Source of the DNA: Klebsiella phage ST13-OXA48phi12.1
Reading direction: 5' to 3' (one strand)
DNA length: 39,086 bases
Sequence record: MK422453.1
Program-made: the position numbers and the translations under genes
Shown: positions 3,543 to 39,046 of the stretch, piece after piece
How positions within the stretch are numbered: the stretch's first letter is position 1
Layout: the number at the start of each line of letters is the position of its first letter
Notes under the pieces: model-generated
The model's input: the letters and a program-made list of their open reading frames with translations, nothing else
Told to the model about the DNA's origin: nothing
Databases searched by the model: none

Positions 3543-5384
3543 ATGGAGCAAAACCCGCAGTCACAGCTGAAGCTTCTTGTCCAACGTGGTAAGGAGCAAG
3601 GCTATCTGACCTATGCCGAGGTCAATGACCATCTGCCGGAAGATATCGTCGATTCCGATCAGATCGAAGACATCATCCAAATGATCAACGACATGGGTAT
3701 TCAGGTGATGGAAGAAGCACCGGATGCCGATGATCTGATGCTTGCCGAAAACACCGCGGATGAAGATGCTGCCGAAGCCGCCGCGCAGGTGCTCTCCAGC
3801 GTGGAATCCGAAATCGGGCGCACGACCGACCCGGTGCGTATGTACATGCGTGAAATGGGTACCGTAGAGCTGCTGACCCGTGAAGGCGAAATTGACATCG
3901 CCAAACGCATCGAAGACGGCATCAATCAGGTGCAGTGCTCCGTTGCCGAATATCCGGAAGCGATCACCTACCTGCTTGAGCAGTACGACCGCGTTGAAGC
4001 GGAAGAAGCCCGTCTGTCCGATCTGATCACCGGTTTCGTCGATCCGAACGCCGAAGAAGATATGGCGCCAACCGCCACCCACGTTGGCTCCGAGCTGTCT
4101 CAGGAAGAGATGGATGACGACGAAGACGAAGACGAAGATGAAGACGCCGACGACAACAGCGATGACGACAACAGCATCGACCCAGAGCTGGCCCGTGAGA
4201 AATTCGCCGAGCTGCGTACCCAGTACGAGCTGACGCGCGACACCATCAAAGCCAAAGGTCGTAGCCATGCCGCCGCCCAGGAAGAGATCCTGAAGCTGTC
4301 TGAAGTCTTCAAGCAGTTCCGCCTGGTGCCGAAGCAGTTCGATTACCTGGTCAACAGCATGCGCAGCATGATGGATCGCGTTCGTACTCAGGAACGTATC
4401 ATCATGAAGCTGTGCGTTGAGCAGTGCAAAATGCCGAAGAAAAACTTCATCACCCTGTTCACCGGCAACGAAACCAGCGAGACCTGGTTCAACGCCGCGG
4501 TGGCAATGAACAAGCCGTGGTCTGAGAAGCTGCTGGAAGTGAAAGAAGATGTGCAGCGCGGCCTGCAGAAGCTGCAGCAGATTGAAGAAGAGACCGGCCT
4601 GACCATCGAGCAGGTTAAAGATATCAACCGTCGCATGTCCATCGGCGAAGCGAAAGCCCGTCGTGCGAAGAAAGAGATGGTTGAAGCGAACCTGCGTCTG
4701 GTTATCTCTATCGCCAAGAAATACACCAACCGCGGTCTGCAGTTCCTCGACCTGATTCAGGAAGGCAACATCGGTCTGATGAAAGCGGTCGATAAGTTCG
4801 AATACCGTCGTGGCTACAAGTTCTCGACCTACGCCACCTGGTGGATCCGTCAGGCCATCACCCGCTCTATCGCGGATCAGGCGCGCACCATCCGTATTCC
4901 GGTGCATATGATTGAGACTATCAACAAGCTCAACCGTATCTCCCGTCAGATGCTGCAGGAGATGGGCCGTGAACCGACCCCGGAAGAGCTGGCTGAGCGT
5001 ATGCTGATGCCGGAAGACAAAATCCGTAAAGTGCTGAAGATCGCCAAAGAGCCTATCTCCATGGAAACGCCGATCGGCGACGATGAAGATTCGCATCTGG
5101 GGGATTTCATCGAGGATACCACCCTCGAGCTGCCGCTGGATTCTGCGACCACCGAGAGCCTGCGCGCGGCAACGCATGACGTGCTGGCCGGCCTCACCGC
5201 TCGTGAAGCGAAAGTGCTGCGTATGCGTTTCGGTATCGACATGAACACCGACCACACGCTGGAAGAAGTGGGTAAACAGTTCGACGTTACCCGCGAACGT
5301 ATCCGTCAGATCGAAGCGAAGGCGCTGCGTAAACTGCGCCACCCGAGCCGTTCTGAAGTGCTGCGTAGCTTCCTCGACGATTAA
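3543..5384 (+). CDS. rpoD: RNA polymerase sigma factor sigma70 (RpoD), 613 aa
   Basis: Start chosen at [13 protein letters not shown] (internal to six-frame ORF 3486..5384) to match the canonical RpoD N-terminus. It has the acidic region [19 protein letters not shown] and regions 2-4 ([43 protein letters not shown]...). Confidence 0.95.
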
Positions 5385-5483: not shown

Positions 5484-5990
5484 CTACTGGCCGCGGGTTG
5501 CCAGGGCATCGTCCAGTTCACGATAGGCCGCCACCAGCTTATCGAGCGTCGCCCGGTTTAAGCCGCTGGGATTAGGCAGCACCCACACCTGGGTCGTCCC
5601 GATGGTCATAGCCTGTTTCCCCCACTTCGCGCCGCGCTGGTTAAAGGCCAGCTCGAAGGCCTGCTTGCCGAGCACCGCCAGCGCCTGCGGCTGATACTCC
5701 TCAATTTTACGTACCAGCTCACGGCCGCCGCTGCGTAACTCCTGCAAGGCGACCTCGCTGGCCTGCACCGTCGGACGCTCTACCAGCATGGTGATGCCGC
5801 AGCGCGTATCCAGCAGCTGCAGCTCCTCTTCCGGCCTGAGCTGCCGATCGGTGAACCCGGCCTGATGGATGACCTTCCAGAAGCGATTGCCAGGATGGGC
5901 AAAATGAAAGCCGGTATGGGCGGAGGACTTCCCCGGGTTGATACCGCAAAAGACAACGCGCAGGCCCGGCGCAAGGATATCGCTAATCAT
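5484..5990 (-). CDS. mug: G/U mismatch-specific DNA glycosylase (Mug), 168 aa
   Basis: [20 protein letters not shown]...NPSGLN matches the Mug/TDG family N- and C-terminal motifs. Its position between rpoD and ileX is as in E. coli. Confidence 0.9.
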
Positions 5991-6098
5991 GTTTTCTCCG
6001 GCTGTATGGCTAAAACATGATTATAAAGGATTGAAAATGCATTGTTTATAAAAACAGCAGCTGCGCGCTTTACGCTGGATTGCAATCGCCAGTTACTT

Positions 6099-6317: not shown

Positions 6318-6695
6318 ATGAAAAAACCTCTTTTGGCCTTGCTACTTGTCGCATCTCAAAGTGCCTTCGCAGACAAAATCCCAGACTCTATTGAGAATCT
6401 CATTGCTGTTTACGATACAAGATCGCACAGCCTGGACAATGGCGAGCTAACCATTAAATACAGCAAACCAAAATTATTGATAGATGCCGCTGAATCACTT
6501 TTCAGCGGCATTTGCAATGATTACTTTATGAACAAATGGAAGCCAGAGACGATTAAAAAAATCACTCTGTTAAATGTTTCCCATGACCAAGGTTTTAGGA
6601 TTAATGGCGGTGGAGTTGAATGTAAAAAAACTGGCTCCATGGAAAACGAAAAGGCACGTTCTTACAGAACCAGTTTGATTGAACCTCTGCAATAA
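6318..6695 (+). CDS. small secreted (Sec signal peptide) hypothetical protein, 125 aa; prophage moron between attL and ogr
   Basis: MKKPLLALLLVASQSAFA|DK shows a signal peptidase I site. There are two Cys, and the gene is AT-rich relative to the flanks. It has its own SD (AAGGACAG) and is oriented opposite to the phage late genes. Confidence 0.65.
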   Translation: MKKPLLALLLVASQSAFADKIPDSIENLIAVYDTRSHSLDNGELTIKYSKPKLLIDAAESLFSGICNDYFMNKWKPETIKKITLLNVSHDQGFRINGGGVECKKTGSMENEKARSYRTSLIEPLQ

Positions 6696-6707: not shown

Positions 6708-6926
6708 TTAAAAGTTCATATGCCCCTGCCCGGCGGCAGTGGGGTGCGGCAGGGCATTATCAATAACTCCAGGTGTCATGATGTATCGCACTACGGTTTC
6801 ATGAGTGATGAAGGTGGTTCCGCAATTAATATTCTGGCACTGACAGTAACGCTCTTTTGTCTGATCCGTTACCCGAAAGCTACTCCGCGTATGCGCCGCG
6901 TGGCCGCACTTTGGACAATTCATCAT
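6708..6926 (-). CDS. ogr: Ogr/Delta-family zinc-finger late-gene transcription activator (P2 Ogr / 186 B), about 72 aa
   Basis: Start chosen at MMNCPKCGHAAHTRSSFRVTDQTKERYCQCQNINCGTTFITHETVVRYI (C-X2-C...C-X4-C zinc finger). A GGGAG SD lies 8 nt upstream. The upstream part of ORF 6708..6956 is judged to be leader. Confidence 0.85.
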   Translation of the reverse strand: MMNCPKCGHAAHTRSSFRVTDQTKERYCQCQNINCGTTFITHETVVRYIMTPGVIDNALPHPTAAGQGHMNF

Positions 6927-6996
6927 TACATTTATCTCCCGCCCTGCACATTTCAATCACATAATGATACATACAACTTCCATTTTGTGAAGCTCA

Positions 6997-25799: not shown

Positions 25800-25884
25800 C
25801 GGTCCGGCTCCGGTTAGTTAGTTCGTAACACGTTCAGAGCCTTATGTTTGCGGTGATAGGCGCGTGTAAACAACGCGTTGGGCT

Positions 25885-25902
25885 TGTGCGAACTCCCACA
25901 CA
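25885..25902. promoter_or_regulatory. Ogr-type late promoter element TGT-N12-ACA (TGTGCGAACTCCCACACA) in the divergent O/P intergenic region
   Basis: Dyad centred about 94 bp upstream of the O start codon (25799), compatible with a -55 site for leftward PO. The P ATG is 55 bp to the right, so a second, unrecognised site may serve PP. Confidence 0.5.
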
Positions 25903-25948
25903 ATGCGAAGCCGGGGAAAGTGCTGATTTGAGGCCGTATGTTTGTGCC

Positions 25949-27712
25949 ATGACAACACTGACCCCCGCAGACCTCGATCCCCGTCGTCAGGCAATGCTGA
26001 TGTACTTTCAGGGATACCGCGTAGCCCGCATTGCTGAAATGCTGGGCGAGAAAGTTGCAACCGTTCACAGCTGGAAAAAACGCGATAAGTGGGGCGAATA
26101 TGGCCCACTGGATCAGATGCAGCTCACCACCGCCGCACGTTACTGCCAGCTCGTCATGAAGGAGCAGAAGGAAGGAAAGGATTTTAAAGAAATTGACCTG
26201 CTGGCGCGTCAGTCCGAACGACAGGCCAGGATCGGCAAATTTAACAATGGCGGTAATGAAGCAGACCTGAACCCCAACGTGGCCAACCGCAATAAAGGCC
26301 CGCGCAAACCGCCGGAAAAAAACCTGTTTACCGACGAACAAATCGAAAAGCTGGAAGAGATTTTCCGCGCCGGTATGTTCGAGTACCAGCGCCACTGGTG
26401 GGACGCTGGTATCAAACACCGTATCCGCAACCTCTTAAAGTCACGCCAGATCGGTGCAACCTACTATTTCGCCCGTGAAGCGTTAATAGACGCCCTGACC
26501 ACGGGGCGAAATCAAATCTTTCTGTCAGCGAGTAAAGCGCAGGCGCACGTTTTTAAACAGTACATCATCGACTTCGCAAAAGAGGTGGACGTTGAGCTGA
26601 AAGGCGATCCGATGGTGCTGCCTAACGGCGCGTGTCTTTACTTCCTCGGTACAAATGCCCGTACCGCGCAGAGCTACCACGGCAACCTGTATCTTGATGA
26701 GTATTTCTGGATACCGAAATTCCAGGAGCTGCGCAAGGTGGCCTCCGGTATGGCGCTGCACAAAAAATGGCGTCAGACCTATTTCTCTACACCTTCAAGC
26801 TTGACGCACAGCGCCTACCCGTTCTGGTCTGGTGCCCTGTTCAATAAAGGGCGCCCGAAAGCCGACAGGGTAGAATTTGACCTTTCTCACAGTAGCCTAG
26901 AGCACGGCGTTTTGTGCCCTGACGGCCAGTACCGCCAGATAGTCACCATTGAGGATGCCGTAAACGGCGGGTGTAACCTTTTCGACCTGGACCAGCTGCG
27001 CCTGGAGTACAGCCCGGACGAATACAACAACCTGCTGATGTGTCAGTTTGTTGACGACCTGGCGTCCGTGTTCCCGCTGGCGTTGCTGCAGTCCTGCATG
27101 GTTGACAGCTGGGACGTGTGGGACGATTTCGAACCGCTTTTACTGCGTCCGTTTGCATACCACCCTGTCTGGATCGGCTATGACCCGGCAAAAGGAACGC
27201 AGAACGGTGACAGCGCCGGTTGCGTGGTCATTGCGCCTCCCGTCGTCCCCGGCGGTAAATTCCGCATCCTTGAGCGTCACCAGTGGCGCGGGATGGACTT
27301 TCGCGCCCAGGCCTCAGCGATTGAGGAAATCACCAGACGCTACAACGTGACCTACATCGGCATTGATTCGACCGGCGTTGGCGATGGCGTTTACAAAACG
27401 GTTAAGCAGTTCTTCCCTGCCGCGCGTGAGTTTGTCTACAACCCGACCGTTAAAAATGCCCTAGTGCTTAAAGCCTACGACATCATCAGCGGGCGCCGTC
27501 TGGAGTTTGACGCGGGGATGCTGGATATCGCGCAGTCCTTTATGTCCATTCGACGTTCAACCACCGCCAGCGGCAACCGGCCAACCTACGAAGCAGCCCG
27601 CACAGAGGAAGCCAGCCACGCGGATTTAGCCTGGGCAACCATGCACGCACTTTATAACGAACCACTGGCAGGAGCTTCCGCCAGTACCAGCAACATCGTG
27701 GAGATTTTTTAA
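25949..27712 (+). CDS. P: terminase ATPase (large) subunit gpP-like, about 587 aa
   Basis: Start chosen at MTTLTPADLDPRRQAMLMYFQGYRVARIAEMLGEKVATVHSWKKRD, which matches the P2 P N-terminus. A Walker-type ATPase and nuclease domains follow. The upstream part of ORF 25844..27712 is excluded. Confidence 0.9.
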   Translation: MTTLTPADLDPRRQAMLMYFQGYRVARIAEMLGEKVATVHSWKKRDKWGEYGPLDQMQLTTAARYCQLVMKEQKEGKDFKEIDLLARQSERQARIGKFNNGGNEADLNPNVANRNKGPRKPPEKNLFTDEQIEKLEEIFRAGMFEYQRHWWDAGIKHRIRNLLKSRQIGATYYFAREALIDALTTGRNQIFLSASKAQAHVFKQYIIDFAKEVDVELKGDPMVLPNGACLYFLGTNARTAQSYHGNLYLDEYFWIPKFQELRKVASGMALHKKWRQTYFSTPSSLTHSAYPFWSGALFNKGRPKADRVEFDLSHSSLEHGVLCPDGQYRQIVTIEDAVNGGCNLFDLDQLRLEYSPDEYNNLLMCQFVDDLASVFPLALLQSCMVDSWDVWDDFEPLLLRPFAYHPVWIGYDPAKGTQNGDSAGCVVIAPPVVPGGKFRILERHQWRGMDFRAQASAIEEITRRYNVTYIGIDSTGVGDGVYKTVKQFFPAAREFVYNPTVKNALVLKAYDIISGRRLEFDAGMLDIAQSFMSIRRSTTASGNRPTYEAARTEEASHADLAWATMHALYNEPLAGASASTSNIVEIF

Positions 27713-28761
27713 TGGCTAACCGCAAAAACCGCAGCAAGGCACCGCGCGGCCAGACCGCCACCGATACGGCCAACATGGTCAGTAATGCACATGCGGAGGC
27801 GTTTACGTTTGGCGATCCGATCCCCGTGATGGACCGCCGGGAGTTATTTGATTACCTGGAGTGCGTGCAGGTAGACCGCTGGTACGAACCACCGATCAGC
27901 ATGGATGGCCTAGCGCGAACTTACCGCGCCGCCGTGCATCACTCCAGCGCTATTCAGGTAAAACGCAATATTCTTACCAGTACCTTCATCCCTCACCGCT
28001 GGCTGTCTAAACAAGCCTTTTCCCGGTTCGCCCAGGACTTTCTGGTATTCGGTAATGCCTACCTTGAAAAACGCATGAACCTGTTAGGGCAGATCATGGA
28101 GCTGCGCGCCTCGCTTGCCAAATATACCCGTCGTGGCATTGACCCGGACACCTACTGGTTTGCACAGTATGGCTACAACTCACAGCCCTATCAGTTCGAT
28201 GAGGGAAGCGTGTTTCACCTGATGGAACCCGACGTTAACCAGGAGCTTTACGGGATGCCGGAATATCTCTCCGCCATTCCCTCCGCCCTGCTGAATGAAT
28301 CGGCCACCCTGTTTCGCCGTAAGTATTACCTTAACGGTAGCCATGCTGGTTTCATCATGTACATGAGCGACCCCGCCGCCGATCAGGAAGACGTGAACAA
28401 CATACGCGAAGCACTTAAAAAATCGAAAGGGCCAGGCAACTTCCGCAACCTGTTTATGTACAGCCCGAACGGCAAGAAAGACGGTATTCAGATCATCCCA
28501 CTGTCAGAAGTCGCAGCGAAAGATGAGTTTCTTAACATCAAGAATGTGAGCCGTGATGACATGCTGGCAGCTCACCGCGTGCCGCCGCAGCTGATGGGGA
28601 TTATTCCAACAAATACTGGCGGGTTCGGTGATGTTGAAAAAGCGGCGCGCGTTTTCGTACGCAACGAGCTGACACCGCTGCAGTGCCGCATCACTGAAGT
28701 TAACGAGTGGCTGGGTGACGAAGTTATACGCTTTAACCCATACCTGACCGATGAAGACTGA
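27712..28761 (+). CDS. Q: portal protein gpQ-like, 349 aa
   Basis: TAATG overlap with P. It is the last structural gene before the convergent terminators, and its size matches P2 Q. Confidence 0.9.
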   Translation: MANRKNRSKAPRGQTATDTANMVSNAHAEAFTFGDPIPVMDRRELFDYLECVQVDRWYEPPISMDGLARTYRAAVHHSSAIQVKRNILTSTFIPHRWLSKQAFSRFAQDFLVFGNAYLEKRMNLLGQIMELRASLAKYTRRGIDPDTYWFAQYGYNSQPYQFDEGSVFHLMEPDVNQELYGMPEYLSAIPSALLNESATLFRRKYYLNGSHAGFIMYMSDPAADQEDVNNIREALKKSKGPGNFRNLFMYSPNGKKDGIQIIPLSEVAAKDEFLNIKNVSRDDMLAAHRVPPQLMGIIPTNTGGFGDVEKAARVFVRNELTPLQCRITEVNEWLGDEVIRFNPYLTDED

Positions 28762-28870: not shown

Positions 28871-29590
28871 TTAAGATCGTTTCTGTTTACGATTCGACTC
28901 TATTTGTTTTTTAAGCTGGATAAGTCTTTCAACCAACTCAAAAACTTTTGTACTTGGATTATCAGTATCGCTAGCTTCAGCTGCCTGTAAACTTCTCTTA
29001 GCCCTCAGGACTACTTCATTTAAATCTTTTGAATCTAGAGCATTAAGGGTTTTATGAAAAATCCCTTTTGCGCCTTTCTCATAGTTCTTAATATATTTTT
29101 TTAACTCACTGACAATTTGATTTCCCGAACTGTTACCCGGTAAATTTCTAAATGCCTTTGTCGAATAGGTATAATGAAGAAGTAACCAATACTCAAAACA
29201 AGGTACTGAATTAACAGTAAACCAACTTGAACTTGGTTTACTTCTCCTGAGAGCATCGAGTGCTGCCACATAGTCAGTGTGGGCATCCTTATCAATCACT
29301 ACAAAGATTTGATCATAAGGAGCCCCCTTTTCAGTCATTTCTTTATGTTTTTCTTTTGCATGACGAACAACACACATTGGACTAGAGCCACACTCACCAG
29401 TTACATCAATTACACTAGCTGTAAGTAATTCATAATGGTTAATCAAATCCTCAAAATAGTTTGGTTCAGTTTTCTTACCCTCACAAACAATTAATATTTT
29501 AGCGAGAGGGGATTTAACTGCATTACGTCTTGCCAGATCCTTAGCAGTTTTAGGACCACGTTTCTTTTTAAATAAATCCTCGCTTCCCAT
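28871..29590 (-). CDS. TOPRIM-like nuclease partner (RloB/DUF4435-like; OLD-family C-terminal-domain analogue), 239 aa
   Basis: ILIVCEGKKTEPNYF (conserved Glu) and IFVVIDKDAHTD (DxD) fit a TOPRIM catalytic pair. The N-terminus is basic. The start codon overlaps the ATPase stop (translational coupling), and the gene is low in GC. Confidence 0.6.
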   Translation of the reverse strand: MGSEDLFKKKRGPKTAKDLARRNAVKSPLAKILIVCEGKKTEPNYFEDLINHYELLTASVIDVTGECGSSPMCVVRHAKEKHKEMTEKGAPYDQIFVVIDKDAHTDYVAALDALRRSKPSSSWFTVNSVPCFEYWLLLHYTYSTKAFRNLPGNSSGNQIVSELKKYIKNYEKGAKGIFHKTLNALDSKDLNEVVLRAKRSLQAAEASDTDNPSTKVFELVERLIQLKKQIESNRKQKRS

Positions 29591-29591
29591 A

Positions 29592-30857
29592 TCAAATCCC
29601 CGTCAATTTCTTGATGAACGGCAATGCTCCATATCTACCGTCTAGGTATGCGGCTTCTAGATTTTCCCTTCCCTTTCTTGGGCTAAAATCAGTCAATGGA
29701 TATAGATTGGTTTCACTGAGTTCATTTTTCTCACAAAACCAGACTTGATCGCGTCTAAAAATGCTTTGATTCAGAATGGATGTCTCATGCGTTGAGAAAA
29801 TTAACTGAGCACCTTTTTTATTAGTATCAGGACTATTAAAAAGATTTACCAAAAAACTAACCAGCTTTGGATGCAATGTATCGTGAAGCTCATCGATAAA
29901 TAGTACATATCCATTATCGAGGGCGTCCAGCCATGGACCAGCTAAAGAAAAAAGTTTTTGAGTGCCATGAGACTCTTCCTCAAGAGAAAAACTAACCGGC
30001 TCCCCTTTATCGTTATAATGCACGGTAGTAACATCAAAGATATCTTTATCCTTCATGTTAGAAATAACGATTTTTTTGATATCATCTGGCATATCAGAGG
30101 GCAAATCGTCTGGATTAAATTTTTCTTTTGTAACTAAAACATCATCAATGCCAATGTCTGCAGCTTTCAAGAAATTCAAGATATCTTTCTTCGTATCCTC
30201 AGTGCAGCGTTTGGCGGAGAATGTATTGGCCCATCCTTTAATACCAGAAAGTCTCAGTGTTTTTTTAAACCAAGTAAATACAGGCTTAAGCTGCTCACTA
30301 TTTAATTGGACAGCTGTAGATAAGAACAAGGCATTATTTCTAGTTGAGCGCTGCCAAACTTGTTTTTCACCAAGCAGTGATGCGCCAAAATCCCACTCAT
30401 ATTCCTGTTTCTCTTCATCCCAAGCTCTGAAATACCACTTTTGAGGTCTTCCTTTTGGGTACGCAAAGAGCCATTCATCAATAATTCTTTCATTTGTAGC
30501 AGAAAAACCAAACTGATACCGAATGCCCTCTGCAATAAAAGTAACTTCAAATTCAGTAGGATTTTTAATTGAATCTGAATCAAGCTTGAAAGGGAATACA
30601 GGAACCTCTTCGCCAGCCTGAGTATTAGATGCAGATTGAGTAACGATATCCATCATAGCTCTGACAGCGAGAAGCACATTCGATTTTCCCGCTGCGTTAG
30701 CACCGTAAATAACAGCTGACTTGAGAACATTAAGGTTAACGTTTCCTTCAACTGTAAAGATATTCTCTTCTAACTCATTACTTTTGTTAGCAATAAGTGA
30801 AAATGTTTGTTTGTTTTTGATTGAGAGATAGTTCTCAACATTGAATTCAATAAGCAT
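29592..30857 (-). CDS. ABC-type AAA_15/AAA_21 ATPase of an OLD/AbiL/PARIS-like two-gene module, 421 aa
   Basis: Walker A GANAAGKSN, a long inserted region, signature-like ESHGTQKLFSLAG, Walker B VLFIDELHDTLHP and H-loop IFSTHE. A strong SD AGGAGGGG precedes the start. The gene is AT-rich compared with the surrounding phage genes. Confidence 0.7.
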   Translation of the reverse strand: MLIEFNVENYLSIKNKQTFSLIANKSNELEENIFTVEGNVNLNVLKSAVIYGANAAGKSNVLLAVRAMMDIVTQSASNTQAGEEVPVFPFKLDSDSIKNPTEFEVTFIAEGIRYQFGFSATNERIIDEWLFAYPKGRPQKWYFRAWDEEKQEYEWDFGASLLGEKQVWQRSTRNNALFLSTAVQLNSEQLKPVFTWFKKTLRLSGIKGWANTFSAKRCTEDTKKDILNFLKAADIGIDDVLVTKEKFNPDDLPSDMPDDIKKIVISNMKDKDIFDVTTVHYNDKGEPVSFSLEEESHGTQKLFSLAGPWLDALDNGYVLFIDELHDTLHPKLVSFLVNLFNSPDTNKKGAQLIFSTHETSILNQSIFRRDQVWFCEKNELSETNLYPLTDFSPRKGRENLEAAYLDGRYGALPFIKKLTGI

Positions 30858-31034
30858 TTTTCCCCTCCTGGTGGTTGAATAATCTTAGTTGCAAAAGCAA
30901 CAAACGTCACCAACAACCAAATCTTAGGACACTTTATGACAAAAAACGTCAAAATGGTACTCATAAAACGGTTCAACGCCCATTTTAAGACTTAATCACC
31001 TTTGCTTTCAGCTAGCTTTGCGCCCTGAACGCGC

Positions 31035-31054
31035 GCTCGTATCCCCGCCACGCC
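31035..31054 (-). other. candidate cos site (minus-strand GGCGTGGCGGGGATACGAGC, matching 13/13 of the first bases of the 186/P2 19-nt cohesive end GGCGTGGCGGGGAAAGCAT)
   Basis: The only P2/186 cos-like string I found in the window. It lies in a 330-bp non-coding gap, at the place in the gene order where cos is expected (between the Q side and the A side). Confidence 0.4.
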
Positions 31055-31096
31055 TGCCCGCTTTGTGTAGTGGTTTTCATGCACCTGCATGAGATA

Positions 31097-31123
31097 TGAA
31101 AAAGCCCGCCAGAACTGGCGGGC
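31097..31123 (-). terminator. rho-independent terminator after orf85 (minus strand GCCCGCCAG-TTCT-CTGGCGGGC + TTTTTCAT)
   Basis: GC stem plus T-run on the minus strand, 70 nt downstream of the orf85 stop. Confidence 0.75.
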
Positions 31124-31189
31124 CGGAGCTAAAACGATCCTCAAACGATCATGCAGATTCATGCGGCATAGTCATGCACTCGCTTTTTT

Positions 31190-31447
31190 TCAGGTTAGCC
31201 TGAAATCCTCGTCAAAATCCATAAAGTTTTCAGCTACTCGCGATGAAAGGATGATGTACTTAATCCCCTCATCCAAGGGAACTGGGCGATCAAGTTCAAG
31301 CATAAAAACACCATCATAGGTTTTACCCAGCCAGAACCCGCCGCCGCAGGATTTTGGCCGCTGAAAAAGCACCCAGCCACCCTGAACAAATTTCGTTAGT
31401 GGCTCATAGCGATAAACGACCTGATAATTGCTGTCTTTAGACCCCAT
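31190..31447 (-). CDS. hypothetical protein, 85 aa (cos-proximal cargo; function unknown)
   Basis: MGSKDSNYQVVYRYEPLTKFVQGGWVLFQRPKSCGGGFWLGKTYDGVFMLELDRPVPLDEG... with a GAGG-type SD. It has its own terminator. No family was recognised. Confidence 0.55.
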   Translation of the reverse strand: MGSKDSNYQVVYRYEPLTKFVQGGWVLFQRPKSCGGGFWLGKTYDGVFMLELDRPVPLDEGIKYIILSSRVAENFMDFDEDFRLT

Positions 31448-31475
31448 AGCCTAACGCCTCGCCTTGCTCGTTGTT

Positions 31476-31524
31476 CAACGTTGCAGGCGGTAAAAACCAG
31501 TTTTATCGCCTGCAACGTTTTGTT
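31476..31524 (+). terminator. 13-bp perfect stem (AACGTTGCAGGCG ... CGCCTGCAACGTT) followed by TTTTGTT; plus-strand-oriented terminator/insulator between the dinI-like gene and orf85
   Basis: Read directly. The T-tract is present only on the plus strand. On the minus strand it directly follows the dinI-like stop, so it may also act as a processing or stability element. Confidence 0.5.
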
Positions 31525-31756
31525 AATGCAGCCAGCTGTCGTCTTCCCAGACCTGCTGCATAATTTCCATTACCCGCTGCTTATCCTCATCAAGTTTTAA
31601 GCCGGTCAACTCGATACCGTTGGCACTGCCTTTGCGAATGCGGATCGCCGTCTTGGGATATAAAGGGATCAGGTTGCGGTAAAGCTCGGTTTCGAGTGCT
31701 TCCAGTGTCGCCTGGCTAATTTTCTGCTCTTTATCAATCATTATTTCGACACGCAT
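31523..31756 (-). CDS. dinI: DinI-family protein (DNA-damage-inducible protein I-like), about 77 aa
   Basis: Start at MRVEIMIDKEQKISQATLEALETELYRNLIPLYPKTAIRIRKGSANGIELTGLKLDEDKQRVMEIMQQVWEDDSWL, which aligns with E. coli DinI (MRIEVTIAK...SVRYAAANNLSVIG...KQRISEILQETWESADDWF). The upstream part of ORF 31523..31804 is excluded. Confidence 0.8.
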   Translation of the reverse strand: MRVEIMIDKEQKISQATLEALETELYRNLIPLYPKTAIRIRKGSANGIELTGLKLDEDKQRVMEIMQQVWEDDSWLH

Positions 31757-31769
31757 GGAGATCATCCCC

Positions 31770-31958
31770 CTAACTGGAAACATCCATTGACCGGGTGTAT
31801 TCATGGCTACGAATTTTCGCCATTAATTCATCAGTCAGCTCAGAAACCCACTGGATAGCAAGTCGCTTCTCTTCATCGCTGCACTCACTAGCCGCTACAA
31901 GCTTGATAAAAAAATCAATACGCTGGAGTTTTAACGACTCCAAAAGATAGTCCTGCAT
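31770..31958 (-). CDS. small hypothetical protein, 62 aa, first gene of the SOS-box-controlled moron operon
   Basis: Start chosen at MQDYLLESLKLQRIDFF... because a strong SD (GGAGGGG) sits immediately upstream. The first ATG of ORF 31770..32048 lies inside the LexA-box/promoter region. Confidence 0.5.
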   Translation of the reverse strand: MQDYLLESLKLQRIDFFIKLVAASECSDEEKRLAIQWVSELTDELMAKIRSHEYTRSMDVSS

Positions 31959-32016
31959 TTCCCCTCCTATCCTCACTACGGGATATCCGTTGCCATATAC
32001 CCTCAAAGGGATATTG

Positions 32017-32054
32017 CCATACTGTATATACATCCACTGGATATCCATACAGTA
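32017..32054 (-). promoter_or_regulatory. tandem LexA (SOS) boxes overlapping the promoter of the orf62-dinI-like operon
   Basis: The minus strand reads TACTGTATGGATATCCAGTG (CTG-N10-CAG; compare consensus TACTGTATATATATACAGTA), followed by GATGTATATACAGTATGG carrying a perfect TATATACAGTA half-site. The region is AT-rich and promoter-like (TTTACA ... TATACT), directly upstream of the SD-marked start. Confidence 0.6.
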
Positions 32055-32141
32055 TAATATGATTTTCTCGATGTAAAATAGTTTTTATCATTCAATCAGA
32101 TGTGTCCGATGCAGGAGGATAAAGCAGAAAATGCGCCCCCT

Positions 32142-34586
32142 TCATCGGTACCACTGGCGCCATTTATCATCTTCCTGCAGCCTTTGGTTCCGGTAAAAGA
32201 CACGCAGACCGGCACCGGATGGAATACTGCCACCGCGCAGAAGCAGATCGATCTCCGCCTCCGAACCATCAAAGCCTCTCGATTTAAGTTCATACTCCAG
32301 CTGCAGGCGCTGCTGATTATCCACATCCTGCCTGTATCCTTTCCGGCGCTTAGGCTTAACCATGCGAAGCCGTGCGTTTAGCTCCCTCAGCTCCTTTTTG
32401 CTCATGCTATGGAGATACTCCTGCAGCTCCCGCTCATCCATACCCGCAATATCCGTTAAATCCTGTCCGCTTACGGCCCCGTTTTCGTTCATTTTTTCCA
32501 CAGGGGGACAGTTATTGCCACGAGTCCAAGGGGCGCAAGCGCCCTGGTCGGCTGGCGCCTCCTGAACGTCAACGGCCTTACGAACCATTTTCCACTTCAT
32601 CGCATGCGTGCAAATCCGGCCCTCAATAATCGGGGACCAAATGCCATAAATACGGATGCTGTGATCGCCATAGGCTGATGGCTCGTCATTGAGTTCATAA
32701 GCCGTGCGGACCAGGTGATGTTTACGCGGAACCAGTACGCCGCCCTGTTTCATGATGTAGGTGGCAAAACACCCGGCATCGGCTGCCGCCAGCACGGCAT
32801 CCAGACGCGGGTTATCCAGTACCGGCGCACCTGCTTTTTTATCGGCCTGCTGTCGCGCGGCCTGGCCCGCCAGCAAACGCAGCTCGCGATAAGCCTGGCG
32901 GCCCGGTATACCGAAAAAGCGGAATTGCTGGACGCGATGCAGCGAAGCCCAGGCATTGACATGTTCGGCATTGTCCCGCAGTGATCTGCCGGTTTCTTTG
33001 CTGATTTCGTTAGCCAGGCCACGCCCGTCGATGTTCTTACTGATGTACTTCGCGATGTAGCTGGTCGGCGTACCCTTGCGCGGGTTGATCAGCTCAGACT
33101 TAAAACGCGGGCCGGTATTGTTGCCCAGCTCCTCGCGGTCCTCACGGATGGCAAATTTACGCAGCAGCGCAGTGATGGACTTGCGGTCTTTTTTGCGCAT
33201 GAAGCAAAGCAGGTGCCAGTGCACGGTGCCGTCATGGTGTGGCTCAGCAACGCGGACGCCATACCAGCGCAGCCCGGCTTTGTGCATCGCCTTGCGGAAA
33301 GCGGCGAACGTATGCACCAGATAGTCGCTGCTCTGCCGGACCGTTGCACTGGTCCATTTCGGGTTTGGCCTGCCGTTATTGAGCGTTGCGTGAAAGCGTG
33401 ACGGGCAGGTGATGGTATAGAACACCGCGCAGTCTCCGCGCATTTCCGCGATTAACTCCAGCCCCTTAACACAGGCCATCATTTCATTACGACGGTGCGC
33501 CGGATTGCTGCTACTGGCGTTTACCACGTCTTCCATATCCAGCGTATCGCCCTGCTCATTGGTCAGCTCATGCGAGCGGAAGAACTCCAGCGATTTGCGG
33601 CGCTGTTCGCGTTTATGGATCACGGCCTCATAGCTGACATACGGGGACGCCTTTTTGTTAACCAGGCAGACGGCGCGCAGCTGTTCTTCCCGCCATTCAC
33701 ACCGCATCTGCCACAGCTTGCGATACCACCAGTCAGCACAGAGCATACGGGCAAGCGAACCCGGAATAAGTTCGTATTGTACCGGGTTACGGCGGTGCTT
33801 TTTGCGGCGCAGCTTCTCGAAGGCAGGCGGGAGAACATCAAGGCGCATGGCCTCAGCGGCCACCCTTTCCCATGACCGGCGGATCTCTTCTGGCGTAACG
33901 TCTTCATCCGTAAACAGCTCACCGCAGGCAGCATCCAGACACATGCTCATGTGTGCCGCCACCAGTGTTGATAAACGCTTAACCTGCTCCTGGTTCATTT
34001 CCGGCAGAACCAGCAGGCCCTCCAGCCCGTCGTGGCTCGCCATAAACCGGAATGACGCAGAAACCTGGCTGGCGCGCACGCGCTCCAGGCGATCAAGGCA
34101 CGGCCTGATGGTTTCACGCAGGTAGCGAGAATAGGCTTTTGCTCTGCCCAGACTATGGAAATATTTAATCCGCTCCAGCAGAGGCTTGCTGATATGGGAC
34201 GGCATGGCGTTAACATCAGCCAGAATAACCAGATCGGGATTAAAACGCTGCTGCTCGCGCGCCATTTTGGCATGGCTAATCAGCCGGTCCTGCTCCATTT
34301 CACGCTGGACAGGATCACGGGATTCATTGAAGAAATAGCGTTCCCAGACCTCATCGCTCATCGCCTCACGCCGCAGTTGCTCCTGCTCGTTGTCGCTGGC
34401 GTAGAGAGCGATCAGGTTTGAAAGCGCAGATACCGGCGCAACTTCCGCCGGGTCCGTGTATGGGTTAACCGCTTTTTTCGGGGTATTCCAGACAAAAGCA
34501 GCGGCGGCATCATCTGCGCCGCCGTAGTTTTTAACGTCGTGATGGCTCACACAAATACTCTCTTTGGAAAGTTTCGTAAGACGCAC
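32142..34586 (-). CDS. A: rolling-circle replication initiation endonuclease gpA (P2 A / 186 RepA family), 814 aa
   Basis: N-terminus [15 protein letters not shown] resembles the P2 A N-terminus. HWHLL motif and the active-site tyrosine motif YIAKYISKN (phiX174-gpA superfamily) are present. The 5' end overlaps the dam 3' end by about 56 nt, so the exact start is uncertain. Confidence 0.88.
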
Positions 34587-37336: not shown

Positions 37337-37957
37337 ATGTCAACACGAAACTTAACGAATAAAGATGACGTAAAGCTGATTCGAGATTTCATATCTCAAA
37401 ATAGAGGCGGAAAAGAGGTCATTGCTCGCATTCTGGAAGCTTATGGTTTCACTACCCGCATAGCCCTCTGCCATCAGCTTGGCGTCTCGCAAAGCACTAT
37501 GGCTAACAGGTATGCACGCGATACCTTCCCAGCCGACTGGGTGATCGTTTGTCATCTTGAAACAGGAGCATCACTAATTTGGCTTAGCACAGGGGAAGGA
37601 AGCAGGTTCCTTGGGGGCAACGATGAAAATATCACCTATTTAAAACGCATGGACATCACGAATGGGAATATCTCAACCCAAAAAGATGTCATAGCTGATA
37701 CATCGACAATTCCAGAGGGCTTGAATTCACCGTTCATCCTGAATGCTGACAAAACGACCTACCTTGCTGACCGTTACGATGGCGAATTGGTAGATGGGTT
37801 CTGGTTCATTGAAATTGATGGGATTGTAAGCGTCCGCGAGCTGTACCGCTTTCCTGGCGGACGCGTGCGAGTTGAGAATGGCAAGGCCTCTTTCGAATGC
37901 AAAATTGATGACATAAAAATCCTTGGGAAAATAATCACTCGTACAGAGAGCATGTGA
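37337..37957 (+). CDS. cI: 186-type CI immunity repressor, 206 aa
   Basis: N-terminal HTH (IALCHQLGVSQSTMANRYARDTF) plus a C-terminal oligomerisation domain. It sits immediately upstream of and co-oriented with int, as in 186/P2 C-int. Confidence 0.8.
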   Translation: MSTRNLTNKDDVKLIRDFISQNRGGKEVIARILEAYGFTTRIALCHQLGVSQSTMANRYARDTFPADWVIVCHLETGASLIWLSTGEGSRFLGGNDENITYLKRMDITNGNISTQKDVIADTSTIPEGLNSPFILNADKTTYLADRYDGELVDGFWFIEIDGIVSVRELYRFPGGRVRVENGKASFECKIDDIKILGKIITRTESM

Positions 37958-37960
37958 ATT

Positions 37961-39046
37961 ATGGCTGTTTCAAAACTACCTAACGGAAAGTGGCAGGCTC
38001 AGGTTTTCCCAAACGGTAGGGATGGAAAGCGCATCCGTCGCCAGTTCGCGACCAAAGGGGAGGCTTTAGCATTTGAGCGCCACATAAAAGATCAGGCTCA
38101 AGATAAGCCGTGGCTGGGCGAGAAAACTGATAAACGCCGCGTTCGGGATTTGGTTACAGCTTGGTATAACGCACATGGCGTTACGCTTGCTGATGGTGAA
38201 AAGCGTAAAGGCGCAATGGAGTTTGCCTGTCTCGCAATGGGCGATCCCCTCGCTACAGAATTCAACGCTAAACTGTTCTCAACTTATAGAGAACAGCGAC
38301 TAAGCGGAAAAATAACCCGCTCTGATCGCGTTAAGGCTGTCACCCCTCGCACGGTTAACCTTGAACTAGCTTACTTTCGGGCTATGTTCAACGAGCTGAA
38401 AAGACTTGATGACTGGACAGCACCCAACCCTCTTGAAAACGTCAGAGAGTTTAAGATCGCAGAAATTGAGCTGGCCTGGCTTACAGTTGAGGAAGCGGCT
38501 CGCTTGCTGGAAGAATGTGAAAAAAGCAAGGCGGAGGATTTAACCATGATTGTTAAAATCTGCCTTGCAACCGGAGCAAGATGGGGTGAGGCGGAAAGTT
38601 TAACTGGAAAGCAGATAAGCCCCGGAAAAATCACTTTTATCAAAACGAAAGGTAAGAAGAACCGAGCTGTTCCTATCAGTGACGAGCTTTATGAATTACT
38701 ACCCAAAAGCCGAACCTCTAAACCGCTCTTTACCGGATGTTACTCAGCATTCAGGAGCGCAGTAAAACGGGCGGGAATTGAACTTCCTGACGGTCAGCTT
38801 TCGCATGTTTTACGGCATACTTTTGCCAGCCATTTCATGATGGGCGGCGGCAATATTCTAGTTTTACAACGCATCCTCGGGCATACAGATATCAAAGTCA
38901 CGATGCGTTATGCTCACTTCGCCCCTGACCACCTTACAGAAGCGGTTCAACTTAACCCATTAAACCTGATAAGTGGCAGCAAAATGGCAGCACAGCGCAG
39001 CACTATGCAATACTTTTCGACAATATACGAAATGCTATGCGTTTGA
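37961..39046 (+). CDS. int: tyrosine integrase (P2/186 Int family), 361 aa
   Basis: MAVSKLPNGKWQAQVFPNGRDGKRIRRQFATKGEALAFE... aligns with P2 Int (MAIKKLDDGRYEVDIRPTGRNGKRIRRKF...). The catalytic R...HxxR...Y (HVLRHTFASHF ... RYAHF) is present. Confidence 0.92.
   Translation: MAVSKLPNGKWQAQVFPNGRDGKRIRRQFATKGEALAFERHIKDQAQDKPWLGEKTDKRRVRDLVTAWYNAHGVTLADGEKRKGAMEFACLAMGDPLATEFNAKLFSTYREQRLSGKITRSDRVKAVTPRTVNLELAYFRAMFNELKRLDDWTAPNPLENVREFKIAEIELAWLTVEEAARLLEECEKSKAEDLTMIVKICLATGARWGEAESLTGKQISPGKITFIKTKGKKNRAVPISDELYELLPKSRTSKPLFTGCYSAFRSAVKRAGIELPDGQLSHVLRHTFASHFMMGGGNILVLQRILGHTDIKVTMRYAHFAPDHLTEAVQLNPLNLISGSKMAAQRSTMQYFSTIYEMLCV

Follow-up and report, generated by a model that had tools for sequence, protein, structure and literature searches.

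Bacteriophage 186 is induced through its LexA-controlled p95-tum operon, whose product Tum binds the CI repressor and blocks its interaction with the operators (PMC7708051). In the sequence record of this phage, the p95 promoter, its LexA site and tum are located directly downstream of the replication gene A and are followed by orf97, with attP residing between B and int, and C-terminal truncated forms of Tum are annotated there merely as modulators of SOS induction. In Fels-2 and PSP3, tum is split by a stop codon and the upstream half functions as antirepressor (PMC3121763), an assignment that for PSP3 goes back to a personal communication quoted in the literature. In the P2-like prophage of E. 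coli HS (DuoHS), mitomycin C induction is abolished by the in-frame, markerless deletion of ECHS_RS04495, which was termed 'tum', and likewise by a lexA(Ind-) allele (PMC12055606). The dinI-antirepressor operons of the Gifsy prophages (GfoA/GftA) are also repressed by LexA and encode, next to a DinI homologue, a small antirepressor directed against a non-cleavable repressor (PMC3121763), although in these lambdoid phages dinI comes first and both antirepressors and repressors belong to other families. Finally, LexA boxes are found as pairs in colicin operons, where they bind two LexA dimers and thus ensure tight repression and late expression, so that a lethal product is not made at the wrong time (PMC2994835).

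In light of these systems, we have analysed a locus of the Klebsiella phage ST13-OXA48phi12.1 (MK422453.1) within a stretch of DNA of 39,086 nucleotides, which is here referred to as the window. We regard this locus, with a probability of about 90%, as the operon that governs SOS induction in a Fels-2/186-type (Peduoviridae) Klebsiella prophage and as counterpart of p95-tum-orf97 of 186, in which tum is split into tumA and tumB (Table 1). Split tum SOS operons as such are ordinary and have already been described, and they constitute the own switch of the prophage rather than foreign cargo. The first-pass annotation of the window had listed a CTG-N10-CAG LexA box with a second half-site, a small ORF marked by a Shine-Dalgarno sequence, a DinI homologue and the adjacent gene A, all of which are present at the described places. 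The order of these elements, with A followed by a LexA box, tum or tumA and a DinI part, is common to 186, Fels-2, PSP3 and E. coli HS, and the window is colinear with them.

Table 1. Features of the putative SOS-induction operon and of associated genes in the window.
Feature	Position	Strand	Description
Replication gene A, upstream neighbour	32142..34586	-	Pfam Phage_GPA 1.3e-129
TTTACA, -35 hexamer of the predicted p95-like promoter	32072..32077	-	17 bp upstream of TACTGT
LexA box 1	32035..32054	-	TACTGTATGGATATCCAGTG; CTG-N10-CAG, promoter-proximal, overlaps -10 hexamer
LexA box 2	32020..32039	-	CAGTGGATGTATATACAGTA; 5 bp in common with box 1, left half GTG instead of CTG
orf62, putative tumA-type antirepressor, 62 aa	31770..31958	-	homologous to 186 Tum N-terminal domain
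DinI-like protein, putative tumB, 77 aa	31523..31756	-	corresponds to C-terminal half of 186 Tum
Conserved RNA hairpin and near-invariant tail	31451..31519	-	hairpin 31477-31519; tail holds Shine-Dalgarno sequence of the next gene
orf85, optional third gene	31190..31447	-	phrog_2100 (function unknown)
Intrinsic terminator ending the operon	31103..31124	-	GGCCCGCCAGTTCTGGCGGGCT then TTTTC
186-type CI repressor, presumed antirepressor target	37337..37957	+	Pfam Phage_CI_repr 1.1e-25, Phage_CI_C 2.6e-24

The small protein encoded by orf62, whose start codon at 31958 is preceded by the Shine-Dalgarno sequence AGGAGGGG, does not show any match to 186 Tum or PSP3 TumA in BLASTP and tblastn searches. 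As judged from sequence comparison, its homology to the N-terminus of Tum is visible via profiles and intermediate sequences alone. orf62 matches phrog_698 (2.5e-36) and additionally phrog_8554 and phrog_1993, families that are also matched by the N-terminus of 186 Tum, and an hhalign comparison with an alignment of Tum N-terminal sequences superimposes columns 1-42 on columns 1-42 with a probability of 94.8% (E 5.4e-8). A much closer relationship is found to ECHS_RS04495 of E. coli HS, from which orf62 differs in 6 out of 62 residues (~90% identity). The first-pass annotation had considered tum to be absent from its usual place near att, and it had thus left the question of how the prophage senses SOS unanswered. 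In 186, this place is next to A and not att, and in the window orf62 and the DinI-like ORF correspond to the split tumA/tumB form described for Fels-2 and PSP3 (PMC3121763). Since tum is present in this split form and since the ~90% identical orthologue of orf62 is genetically required for SOS induction (PMC12055606), SOS sensing does not pose an open question.

The DinI-like ORF, whose ATG is located 13 nt past the TAG stop codon of orf62, covers positions 2-63 of the 63 positions of the Pfam DinI profile (PF06183, 8.5e-24), including the acidic C-terminal helix VWEDDSW. It shares 40% identity with residues 71-145 of 186 Tum (E 1e-23), and it aligns over its full length to E. coli DinI (PDB 1GHH; residues 1-75 of the DinI-like protein on residues 1-77, E 3.3e-8). 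With 51.1 bits, the protein stays below the cut-off of 111 bits of the NCBIfam DinI equivalog NF007893. By sequence, tumB is thus classified as a member of the DinI family but not as equivalent of chromosomal DinI.

The presence of both parts in a single polypeptide in 186, and the fact that PHROG and RefSeq labels extend the name DinI to the entire Tum protein, could be taken as indication that the DinI-like protein is the effective inducer, acting for example on CI or RecA, and that orf62 is a helper or serves another role. In such case, deletion of the upstream gene might cause its phenotype by lowering the translation of a downstream gene that starts only 13 nt further on. We consider this highly improbable, as the deletion in E. 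coli HS was in-frame and markerless (PMC12055606), the antirepressor activity in PSP3 was reported for the upstream gene (PMC3121763) and the C-terminal truncated Tum forms of 186 are assigned a modulatory function only. Moreover, several Peduoviridae, namely ENT90, YenM_324, YenM_201.16, ESSI-2 and some IMG/VR contigs, have a LexA box followed by a Tum-N-like gene but lack any DinI part. Distant Tum-N-like genes from four other genera of the Peduoviridae are also located after gpA and behind a LexA box of 24-28 bits.

The presumed target of the antirepressor is also encoded in the window. Its CI protein is related to CI of 186 (36% identity over 177 aa, E 3e-41), and Pfam does not detect a peptidase S24 domain, which would mediate autocleavage. 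A repressor without such a detected domain would require an antirepressor for its inactivation, and no other Tum-like sequence was found within the window. This composition bears on the proposal of the first-pass annotation that the locus would be a LexA-controlled moron operon, an accessory unit carrying DinI as cargo that is unrelated to the lysis-lysogeny switch, with SOS being sensed by another route. LexA control of an operon next to A, with genes for a small protein and for a DinI homologue, is supported by our analysis, while its description as moron is not, as the operon appears to be the induction module of the phage itself. In favour of an accessory role, one could refer to the label 'hypothetical protein', which orf62 and its homologues carry in nearly all database records, to the failure of BLAST in relating orf62 to 186 Tum and to the location of the operon, which abuts the region between gpA and gpQ, a hotspot of variable accessory genes (PMC9122126). 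However, hundreds of relatives retain the orf62-dinI pair at the same place and with a constant sequence, with variation being confined to the downstream content, and its location corresponds to the position of tum in 186. In the window, A and orf62 share a strand and are separated by 183 nt. Together with the profile homology to the Tum N-terminus, the properties of CI and the fact that E. coli HS genetically requires the orthologue for induction, this renders the assignment as a moron very unlikely and argues for a genuine part of the prophage switch.

Control by LexA is predicted from the sequence of the promoter region. The minus strand from 32054 to 32035 contains the CTG-N10-CAG motif noted in the first-pass annotation, and the second half-site TATATACAGTA (32030..32020) turns out to be the right half of a complete 20-mer, which defines box 2. 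For their evaluation, we used a position weight matrix derived from 27 E. coli LexA sites, which themselves score between 12.5 and 27.7 bits (median 20.3). On two independent known operators, this matrix provides values of 28.3 bits for the annotated LexA site of 186 and of 22.5 and 16.3 bits for the two boxes of ColE1 cea. With 23.1 bits for box 1 and 19.2 bits for box 2, the two 20-mers are the best matches of the window and their scores are not at background level. The third-best match (17.6 bits) is located in host DNA and the fourth reaches 9.2 bits.

The bare CTG-N10-CAG motif is by itself non-diagnostic, with 24 copies in the window compared to about 10 expected. This abundance, the absence of a perfect CTG in box 2 and the weak -10 hexamer would be in line with a fortuitous or vestigial match in an operon that is constitutive or otherwise controlled. 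Conversely, both boxes score as highly as real LexA sites do, and in 1000 random 39-kb sequences generated by a first-order Markov model, values of at least 19 bits were reached in 0.7%, whereas neither a score of at least 23.1 bits nor two boxes at a 15-bp offset were obtained in any of them. The arrangement is also conserved. Among 69 distinct related upstream regions, both boxes are kept in 55 (with a partner at +15 bp of at least 12.5 bits), 13 contain a single very strong box and in 65 of them TTTACA precedes box 1 at a distance of exactly 17 bp. In these regions, the CTG and CAG positions of the boxes are retained while the spacer sequence drifts. In combination with a geometry that is identical to the ColE1 operator, these features make a fortuitous or vestigial box extremely unlikely.

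The -10 hexamer TACTGT of the predicted promoter doubles as the first six nucleotides of box 1. A generic scan for sigma-70 promoters did not make a call at TTTACA-17-TACTGT, because TACTGT matches only three of the six positions of the -10 element. The identical hexamer is found in the annotated p95 promoter of 186, which has the layout TTCACA-18-TACTGT. An operator of equivalent architecture is found upstream of ColE1 cea (5061-5095), where two 20-mers at an offset of 15 bp share 5 bp within a total of 35 bp and where, as in the window, the second box starts with CAGTGG. The genes downstream of the colicin operators are unrelated to those in the window. By analogy to colicin operons, the double operator would probably confer tighter repression and consequently reduce spontaneous induction. 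No exact match to the 35-bp operator was found in species-representative genomes. A colicin-like double operator in this context may be undescribed.

The relationship to the described operons can be specified by comparison of their components. With 186, the window shares the position after A, the LexA box overlapping with TACTGT, the N-terminal antirepressor and C-terminal DinI modules, the 186-type CI and a further gene that is followed by a terminator. It differs in the distribution of the Tum modules on separate ORFs, the second of which starts 13 nt after the stop codon of the first, in the presence of a second LexA box that overlaps with the first, in the divergence of the N-terminal module beyond detection by BLAST, in the replacement of orf97 by the unrelated orf85 and in a hairpin without U tract where 186 contains the canonical partial terminator t95a. 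A closer resemblance exists to Fels-2 (STM2728 and STM2726.1) and E. coli HS (ECHS_RS04495 and ECHS_RS04500), which both encode a 62-aa orthologue of orf62 of about 90% identity and an orthologous DinI-like protein downstream of a TTTACA promoter with double LexA box. In these prophages, the third gene encodes a protein of either 243 or 225 aa instead of orf85 and the hairpin following dinI is absent, whereas the window, whose host flank was identified as Klebsiella pneumoniae by means of a probe, contains this hairpin and a 5' UTR that is about 30 nt longer. PSP3 resembles the window in its tumA/tumB split, which is annotated as such, in an upstream LexA box (30 bits) and in the hairpin and tail following tumB, but it contains a single box and, within the N-terminal family, its TumA falls into the 186-like branch.

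Based on this comparison, we propose the following mechanism. In the lysogen, two LexA dimers would reside on the overlapping boxes and thus extend over the -10 region and the beginning of the TTTACA-17-TACTGT promoter, as suggested by sequence and conservation. DNA damage would activate RecA and lead to the self-cleavage of LexA and the firing of the promoter, resulting in the transcription of tumA, tumB and probably orf85 up to the terminator. TumA would in turn bind the 186-type CI protein and keep it off its operators to release the early lytic promoter and initiate lytic growth, a step that has been demonstrated for 186 Tum and, by genetic means, for the ~90% identical orthologue of E. 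coli HS. TumB, as expected for a member of its family, would bind RecA filaments and tune the SOS signal. The modulation of RecA by the DinI-like product during induction, which was already suggested in the first-pass annotation, would agree with published thinking on such operons (PMC3121763).

Downstream of tumB, we find a conserved hairpin that is followed by a tail of the sequence GGTTGAACAACGAG-N4-GCGAGGCGTTAG, with the copy in the window containing one mismatch. The tail, which can also be written as GGUUGAACAACGAG-N4-GCGAGGCGUUAG, stops 2-3 nt short of the next start codon. Both elements are also present in PSP3. The hairpin consists of 14 pairs with 96.9% of cells in the alignment being paired and with compensatory changes at 10 pairs, and its covariation score of 0.48 exceeds those of shuffles (0.24) and of slid controls (about 0.08). 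The alignment contains about 19 G-U cells but only 3 A-C cells, and this excess indicates an RNA transcribed from the sense strand. The hairpin lacks a subsequent U tract, and a scan of the region 30900-32200 did not provide a meaningful match to Rfam, which does not contain a family for this hairpin. A covarying hairpin at this location may be undescribed. Its role as terminator of an antisense transcript, as flagged on the plus strand by a terminator scan, was rejected in view of a T-rich tail that is not conserved in relatives and of the G-U excess on the sense strand. Similarly, the hairpin does not qualify as cos, which in P2-like phages adjoins the portal gene (PMC9122126), whereas the portal gene in the window ends at 28761, about 2.7 kb away.

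The gene following the hairpin in the window, orf85, is a clean presence/absence cassette that is carried by approximately one third of the relatives. Searches in Pfam, NCBIfam and PADLOC did not identify any match, and the sole match in PHROG, phrog_2100, is a family of no known function. Homologues obtained in a word-indexed search and an exhaustive phmmer search are all unnamed small proteins, and few long matches extending over multiple stretches were discarded as compositional noise. An AlphaFold2 model with moderate confidence (pLDDT 70.5, compared to about 55 for the other four models) did not retrieve any structure with an E-value below 0.06 in Foldseek searches of PDB and BFVD, and a profile search against PDB sequences remained empty. 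The absence of a recognizable family, as described in the first-pass annotation, is thus upheld, while we did not find evidence in Pfam, NCBIfam, PADLOC, PHROG or Foldseek for its suggested involvement in anti-defence or superinfection exclusion. We assume that orf85 is probably co-transcribed with orf62 and the DinI-like gene by read-through of the hairpin. The terminator predicted at the end of the operon contains 9 pairs, 7 of which are G-C.

As a tentative and rather doubtful proposal, the hairpin and its tail might constitute an undescribed RNA element of SOS operons in the P2 family, which acts as leaky attenuator or processing site and also provides a fixed ribosome-binding site. Swappable cargo bordering the gpA-gpQ defence hotspot, here the optional orf85 cassette, would thereby be subjected to SOS control. 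In this proposal, orf85 would represent a new family of early accessory factors whose expression is induced by SOS.

As a consequence of the 'hypothetical protein' label of orf62 and its homologues, Fels-2-type prophages of Klebsiella, Salmonella, Enterobacter and E. coli seem to be devoid of an SOS sensor. Its recognition as split-tum antirepressor accounts for the induction of these very common prophages by DNA-damaging antibiotics and points towards a single small gene whose deletion would lock such prophages in. The double LexA operator, which is found in most relatives with a minority containing one stronger box instead, could matter for induction thresholds, and the hairpin with its shared ribosome-binding site could matter for the expression of cargo in the hotspot.

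The window comprises a segment of the Klebsiella pneumoniae chromosome encoding tsaD, dnaG, rpoD, mug and a tRNA; the host sequence at its flank corresponds to K. pneumoniae ATCC 13883. Beside this tRNA, a P2/186/Fels-2-type (Peduoviridae) prophage has inserted, with a gene order that is colinear with the map of phage 186. The first-pass annotation had expected the SOS antirepressor gene tum near att and considered it to be missing. In the record of phage 186, gene A is directly followed by the promoter p95 and its LexA site, next by tum and finally by orf97, and attP is located between B and int, away from tum. The premise is therefore wrong, and the locus after gene A is the tum position. 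The gene that was thought to have replaced tum, located at 6318-6695 on the plus strand between ogr and the tRNA/att end of the prophage, encodes a secreted-type protein of 125 residues with a clear signal peptide (MKKPLLALLLVASQSAFA), for which no Pfam or PADLOC family was found, and is likely a true moron.

Features of the prophage and of the SOS operon (positions in the window)
Feature	Position	Strand	Remarks
tRNA, CAT anticodon	6115-6190		host DNA
ogr	6708-6956		first in prophage gene order, late genes next
terminase and portal	25844-28761		after late genes
AbiL defence system, two genes	28871-30857	minus	between portal and SOS operon
orf85	31190-31447	minus	
hairpin and tail	31451-31519	minus	GGTTGAACAACGAG-N4-GCGAGGCGTTAG, directly after tumB stop
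DinI-like ORF (tumB)	31756-31523	minus	77 aa, Pfam DinI 8.5e-24
leader to orf62 (tumA) start	ATG 31958	minus	from box 2: ~60 nt, AGGAGGGG, ATG
LexA box 2	32039-32020	minus	CAGTGGATGTATATACAGTA, overlaps box 1
LexA box 1	32054-32035	minus	TACTGTATGGATATCCAGTG
-35 hexamer	32077-32072	minus	TTTACA, 17-nt spacer to box 1
replication gene A	32142-34586		after SOS operon, followed by dam
dam, then DUF2732, DksA-like and CII genes			between gene A and CI
186-type CI	37337-37957		
integrase	37961-39046		next to CI

The central point of the first-pass annotation, that the operon at this position is a moron operon, is wrong: it is not a moron and encodes a split tum. Its DinI-like ORF is a full-length member of the DinI family, as seen in the alignment with E. 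coli DinI (PDB 1GHH), and shares 40% identity with residues 71-145 of 186 Tum; the DinI gene of Fels-2 is noted in its record as similar to TumB. For orf62, BLAST revealed no similarity to Tum. The protein is a member of phrog_698 that also matches phrog_8554 and phrog_1993, and the same three families are matched by the first 60 residues of 186 Tum. A comparison of a profile of orf62 homologues with one of Tum N-termini, made from 186, ENT90, two Yersinia phages and PSP3 TumA, aligned residues 1-42 with residues 1-42 at a probability of 94.8% (E 5.4e-8), and inspection by eye identified the common pattern L-x-R-[IV]-[DE]-[LF]-[IF]-x-[KR]-[LM]-x-A-x3-C-x3-[DE]-[KR]-x-[LI]-A-[LI]-x-W-[IV]-x-E-[LI]. 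All compared genes of the Tum N-terminal type directly follow gpA and are preceded by a LexA box of 24-30 bits. A stand-alone Tum-N-like gene with a strong LexA box and without a DinI part is found in ENT90, YenM_324, YenM_201.16 and ESSI-2, which represent several Peduoviridae genera; the annotations of YenM_324 and ESSI-2 lack this ORF.

The proposed relationship agrees with previous work. Tum was described as a fusion of an antirepressor with a DinI homologue; in Fels-2 and PSP3, a stop codon divides tum and the antirepressor activity resides in the upstream gene (Lemire et al., 2011; PMC3121763), and the annotation of PSP3 lists tumA ('similar to 5' end 186 tum; UV induction of prophage') and tumB. 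When 'tum' (ECHS_RS04495) is deleted from the P2-like prophage that E. coli HS carries, mitomycin-C-induced lysis is abolished, as it is in a lexA(Ind-) background (Ortiz de Ora et al., 2025; PMC12055606). ECHS_RS04495 is a 62-residue protein that differs from orf62 at 6 positions and, as in the window, it is preceded by TTTACA and a double-box promoter and followed by a DinI-like gene. Thus tum is present, and how this prophage senses SOS is not the open question that the first-pass annotation took it to be.

The assignment of an operon under LexA control that lies beside gene A and includes a DinI homologue was borne out, and the sequence features on which it was based were all recovered at the positions given. 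What had been taken for a second half-site is present as the right half of a complete second LexA box. The bare CTG-N10-CAG motif alone is uninformative, with 24 copies in the window compared to about 10 expected. We used a weight matrix trained on 27 LexA sites of E. coli (training scores 12.5-27.7 bits), which assigned 28.3 bits to the annotated site of 186 and 22.5 and 16.3 bits to the ColE1 cea operator. Box 1 and box 2 score 23.1 and 19.2 bits, well apart from the remaining matches in the window, which reach 17.6 bits in host DNA and then at most 9.2 bits. Among 1000 Markov random sequences of the length and composition of the window, 0.7% contained a match of at least 19 bits and none contained either a match of at least 23.1 bits or a pair offset by 15 bp. 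The third-best match, CATTGTTTATAAAAACAGCA at 6040-6059 between mug and the tRNA gene, carries TTG in place of CTG and ranks near the 99th percentile expected at random; it may represent a weak SOS site of the host or a chance occurrence.

A generic sigma-70 scan did not call the promoter of the operon because no more than 3 of the 6 positions in its -10 hexamer TACTGT agree with the consensus. The identical hexamer is found inside the LexA site of the annotated, SOS-dependent promoter p95 of 186. In 80 IMG/VR relatives, Fels-2, E. coli HS and the window copy, which together provide 69 distinct upstream regions, both boxes are found in 55, a single box in 13 and a rearrangement in one, and TTTACA is placed exactly 17 bp 5' of box 1 in 65, with variable spacers and flanks. 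The ColE1 operator (401-435 of the compared record) shares the 35-bp two-box geometry of window positions 32020-32054, and box 2 starts with CAGTGG in both. In colicin operons, such operators hold two LexA dimers and keep a lethal function from being expressed at the wrong time (PMC2994835); by analogy, the double operator would keep spontaneous induction low. Single boxes are on average stronger (26 compared to 24 bits), which would fit a selection for overall repression strength. The 5' UTR (31959-32019, minus strand) contains GGATATCC twice and is about 30 nt longer in the subgroup of the window than in that of Fels-2 and E. coli HS, as judged from the relatives L005-L015. The extra stretch holds an imperfect stem (ATATCCC-TTTGA-GGGTATAT), whose counterpart in some relatives, such as L008 (GCTATATCCC/GGGATATAGC), is perfect over 10 bp.

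At the place after tum where 186 contains the canonical partial terminator t95a, the window instead carries a hairpin with a near-invariant tail, followed after 2-3 nt by the next start codon. This element is common to most Fels-2-like relatives (most of L004-L083) and PSP3 (5555-5617 of its record). Its stem covaries strongly, with 96.9% of cells paired across 14 pairs, compensatory changes at 10 pairs and a covariation score of 0.48 (shuffles, 0.24; slid controls, about 0.08). The excess of G-U over A-C cells (about 19 compared to 3) points to a sense-strand RNA. The element contains no U tract, and a scan of Rfam returned no family. Its tail motif is found in at least 120 IMG/VR contigs and directly follows a dinI-like gene in 60 of 81 examined occurrences, the rest being placed after a tumA-like or another gene. 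The element might act as leaky attenuator or processing hairpin combined with a shared ribosome-binding site. It borders the gpA-gpQ variable region (PMC9122126), and the literature searched contained no description of such an element. The AbiL genes, which reside in the gpA-gpQ defence hotspot of P2-like phages, are on the same strand as the SOS operon immediately beyond its terminator and encode a 421-residue AAA_21 ATPase (AbiLi, PADLOC 1.4e-101) and a 239-residue RloB-like protein (AbiLii, 1.6e-29).

The third gene, orf85, behaves among relatives as a cassette that is either cleanly present or absent; relatives without it have the conserved tail connected via about 7 nt to GTGCATGnCTATGCCGCATGAA..., the sequence located 3' of its stop codon in the window. 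Its sole family match is phrog_2100, of unknown function, with no further match in searches including Pfam, NCBIfam and PADLOC, and its homologues are all unnamed. The AlphaFold2 model (pLDDT 70.5) shows a four-stranded sheet with a helix and a disordered acidic tail, for which neither Foldseek against PDB and BFVD nor a PDB-sequence profile search detected a significant neighbour. Since homologues occupy the same slot in phage Cartapus and are also found in SSU5-like phage-plasmids and, in P22-like phages, within the early-left 'ea' region, we suggest that orf85 is an early-expressed accessory gene.

The presumed target of TumA is the CI of the prophage, a 186-type repressor containing Phage_CI_repr and Phage_CI_C domains that shares 36% identity with CI of 186. 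A peptidase domain was not detected in this protein and induction therefore needs an antirepressor. In 186, LexA cleavage, tum transcription, sequestration of CI and opening of the lytic promoter are established as consecutive steps (PMC7708051). By orthology and sequence, LexA would keep the operon promoter shut until its SOS-triggered cleavage permits transcription of tumA-tumB(-orf85), upon which TumA would sequester CI to open the lytic promoter, and TumB presumably acts on RecA filaments in the manner of DinI. The system is thus already known, with the window copy being the Klebsiella orthologue of the split-tum operon of Fels-2 and E. coli HS, and what remains of modest interest are the hairpin after tumB, orf85 as an optional cassette and the two-box operator.
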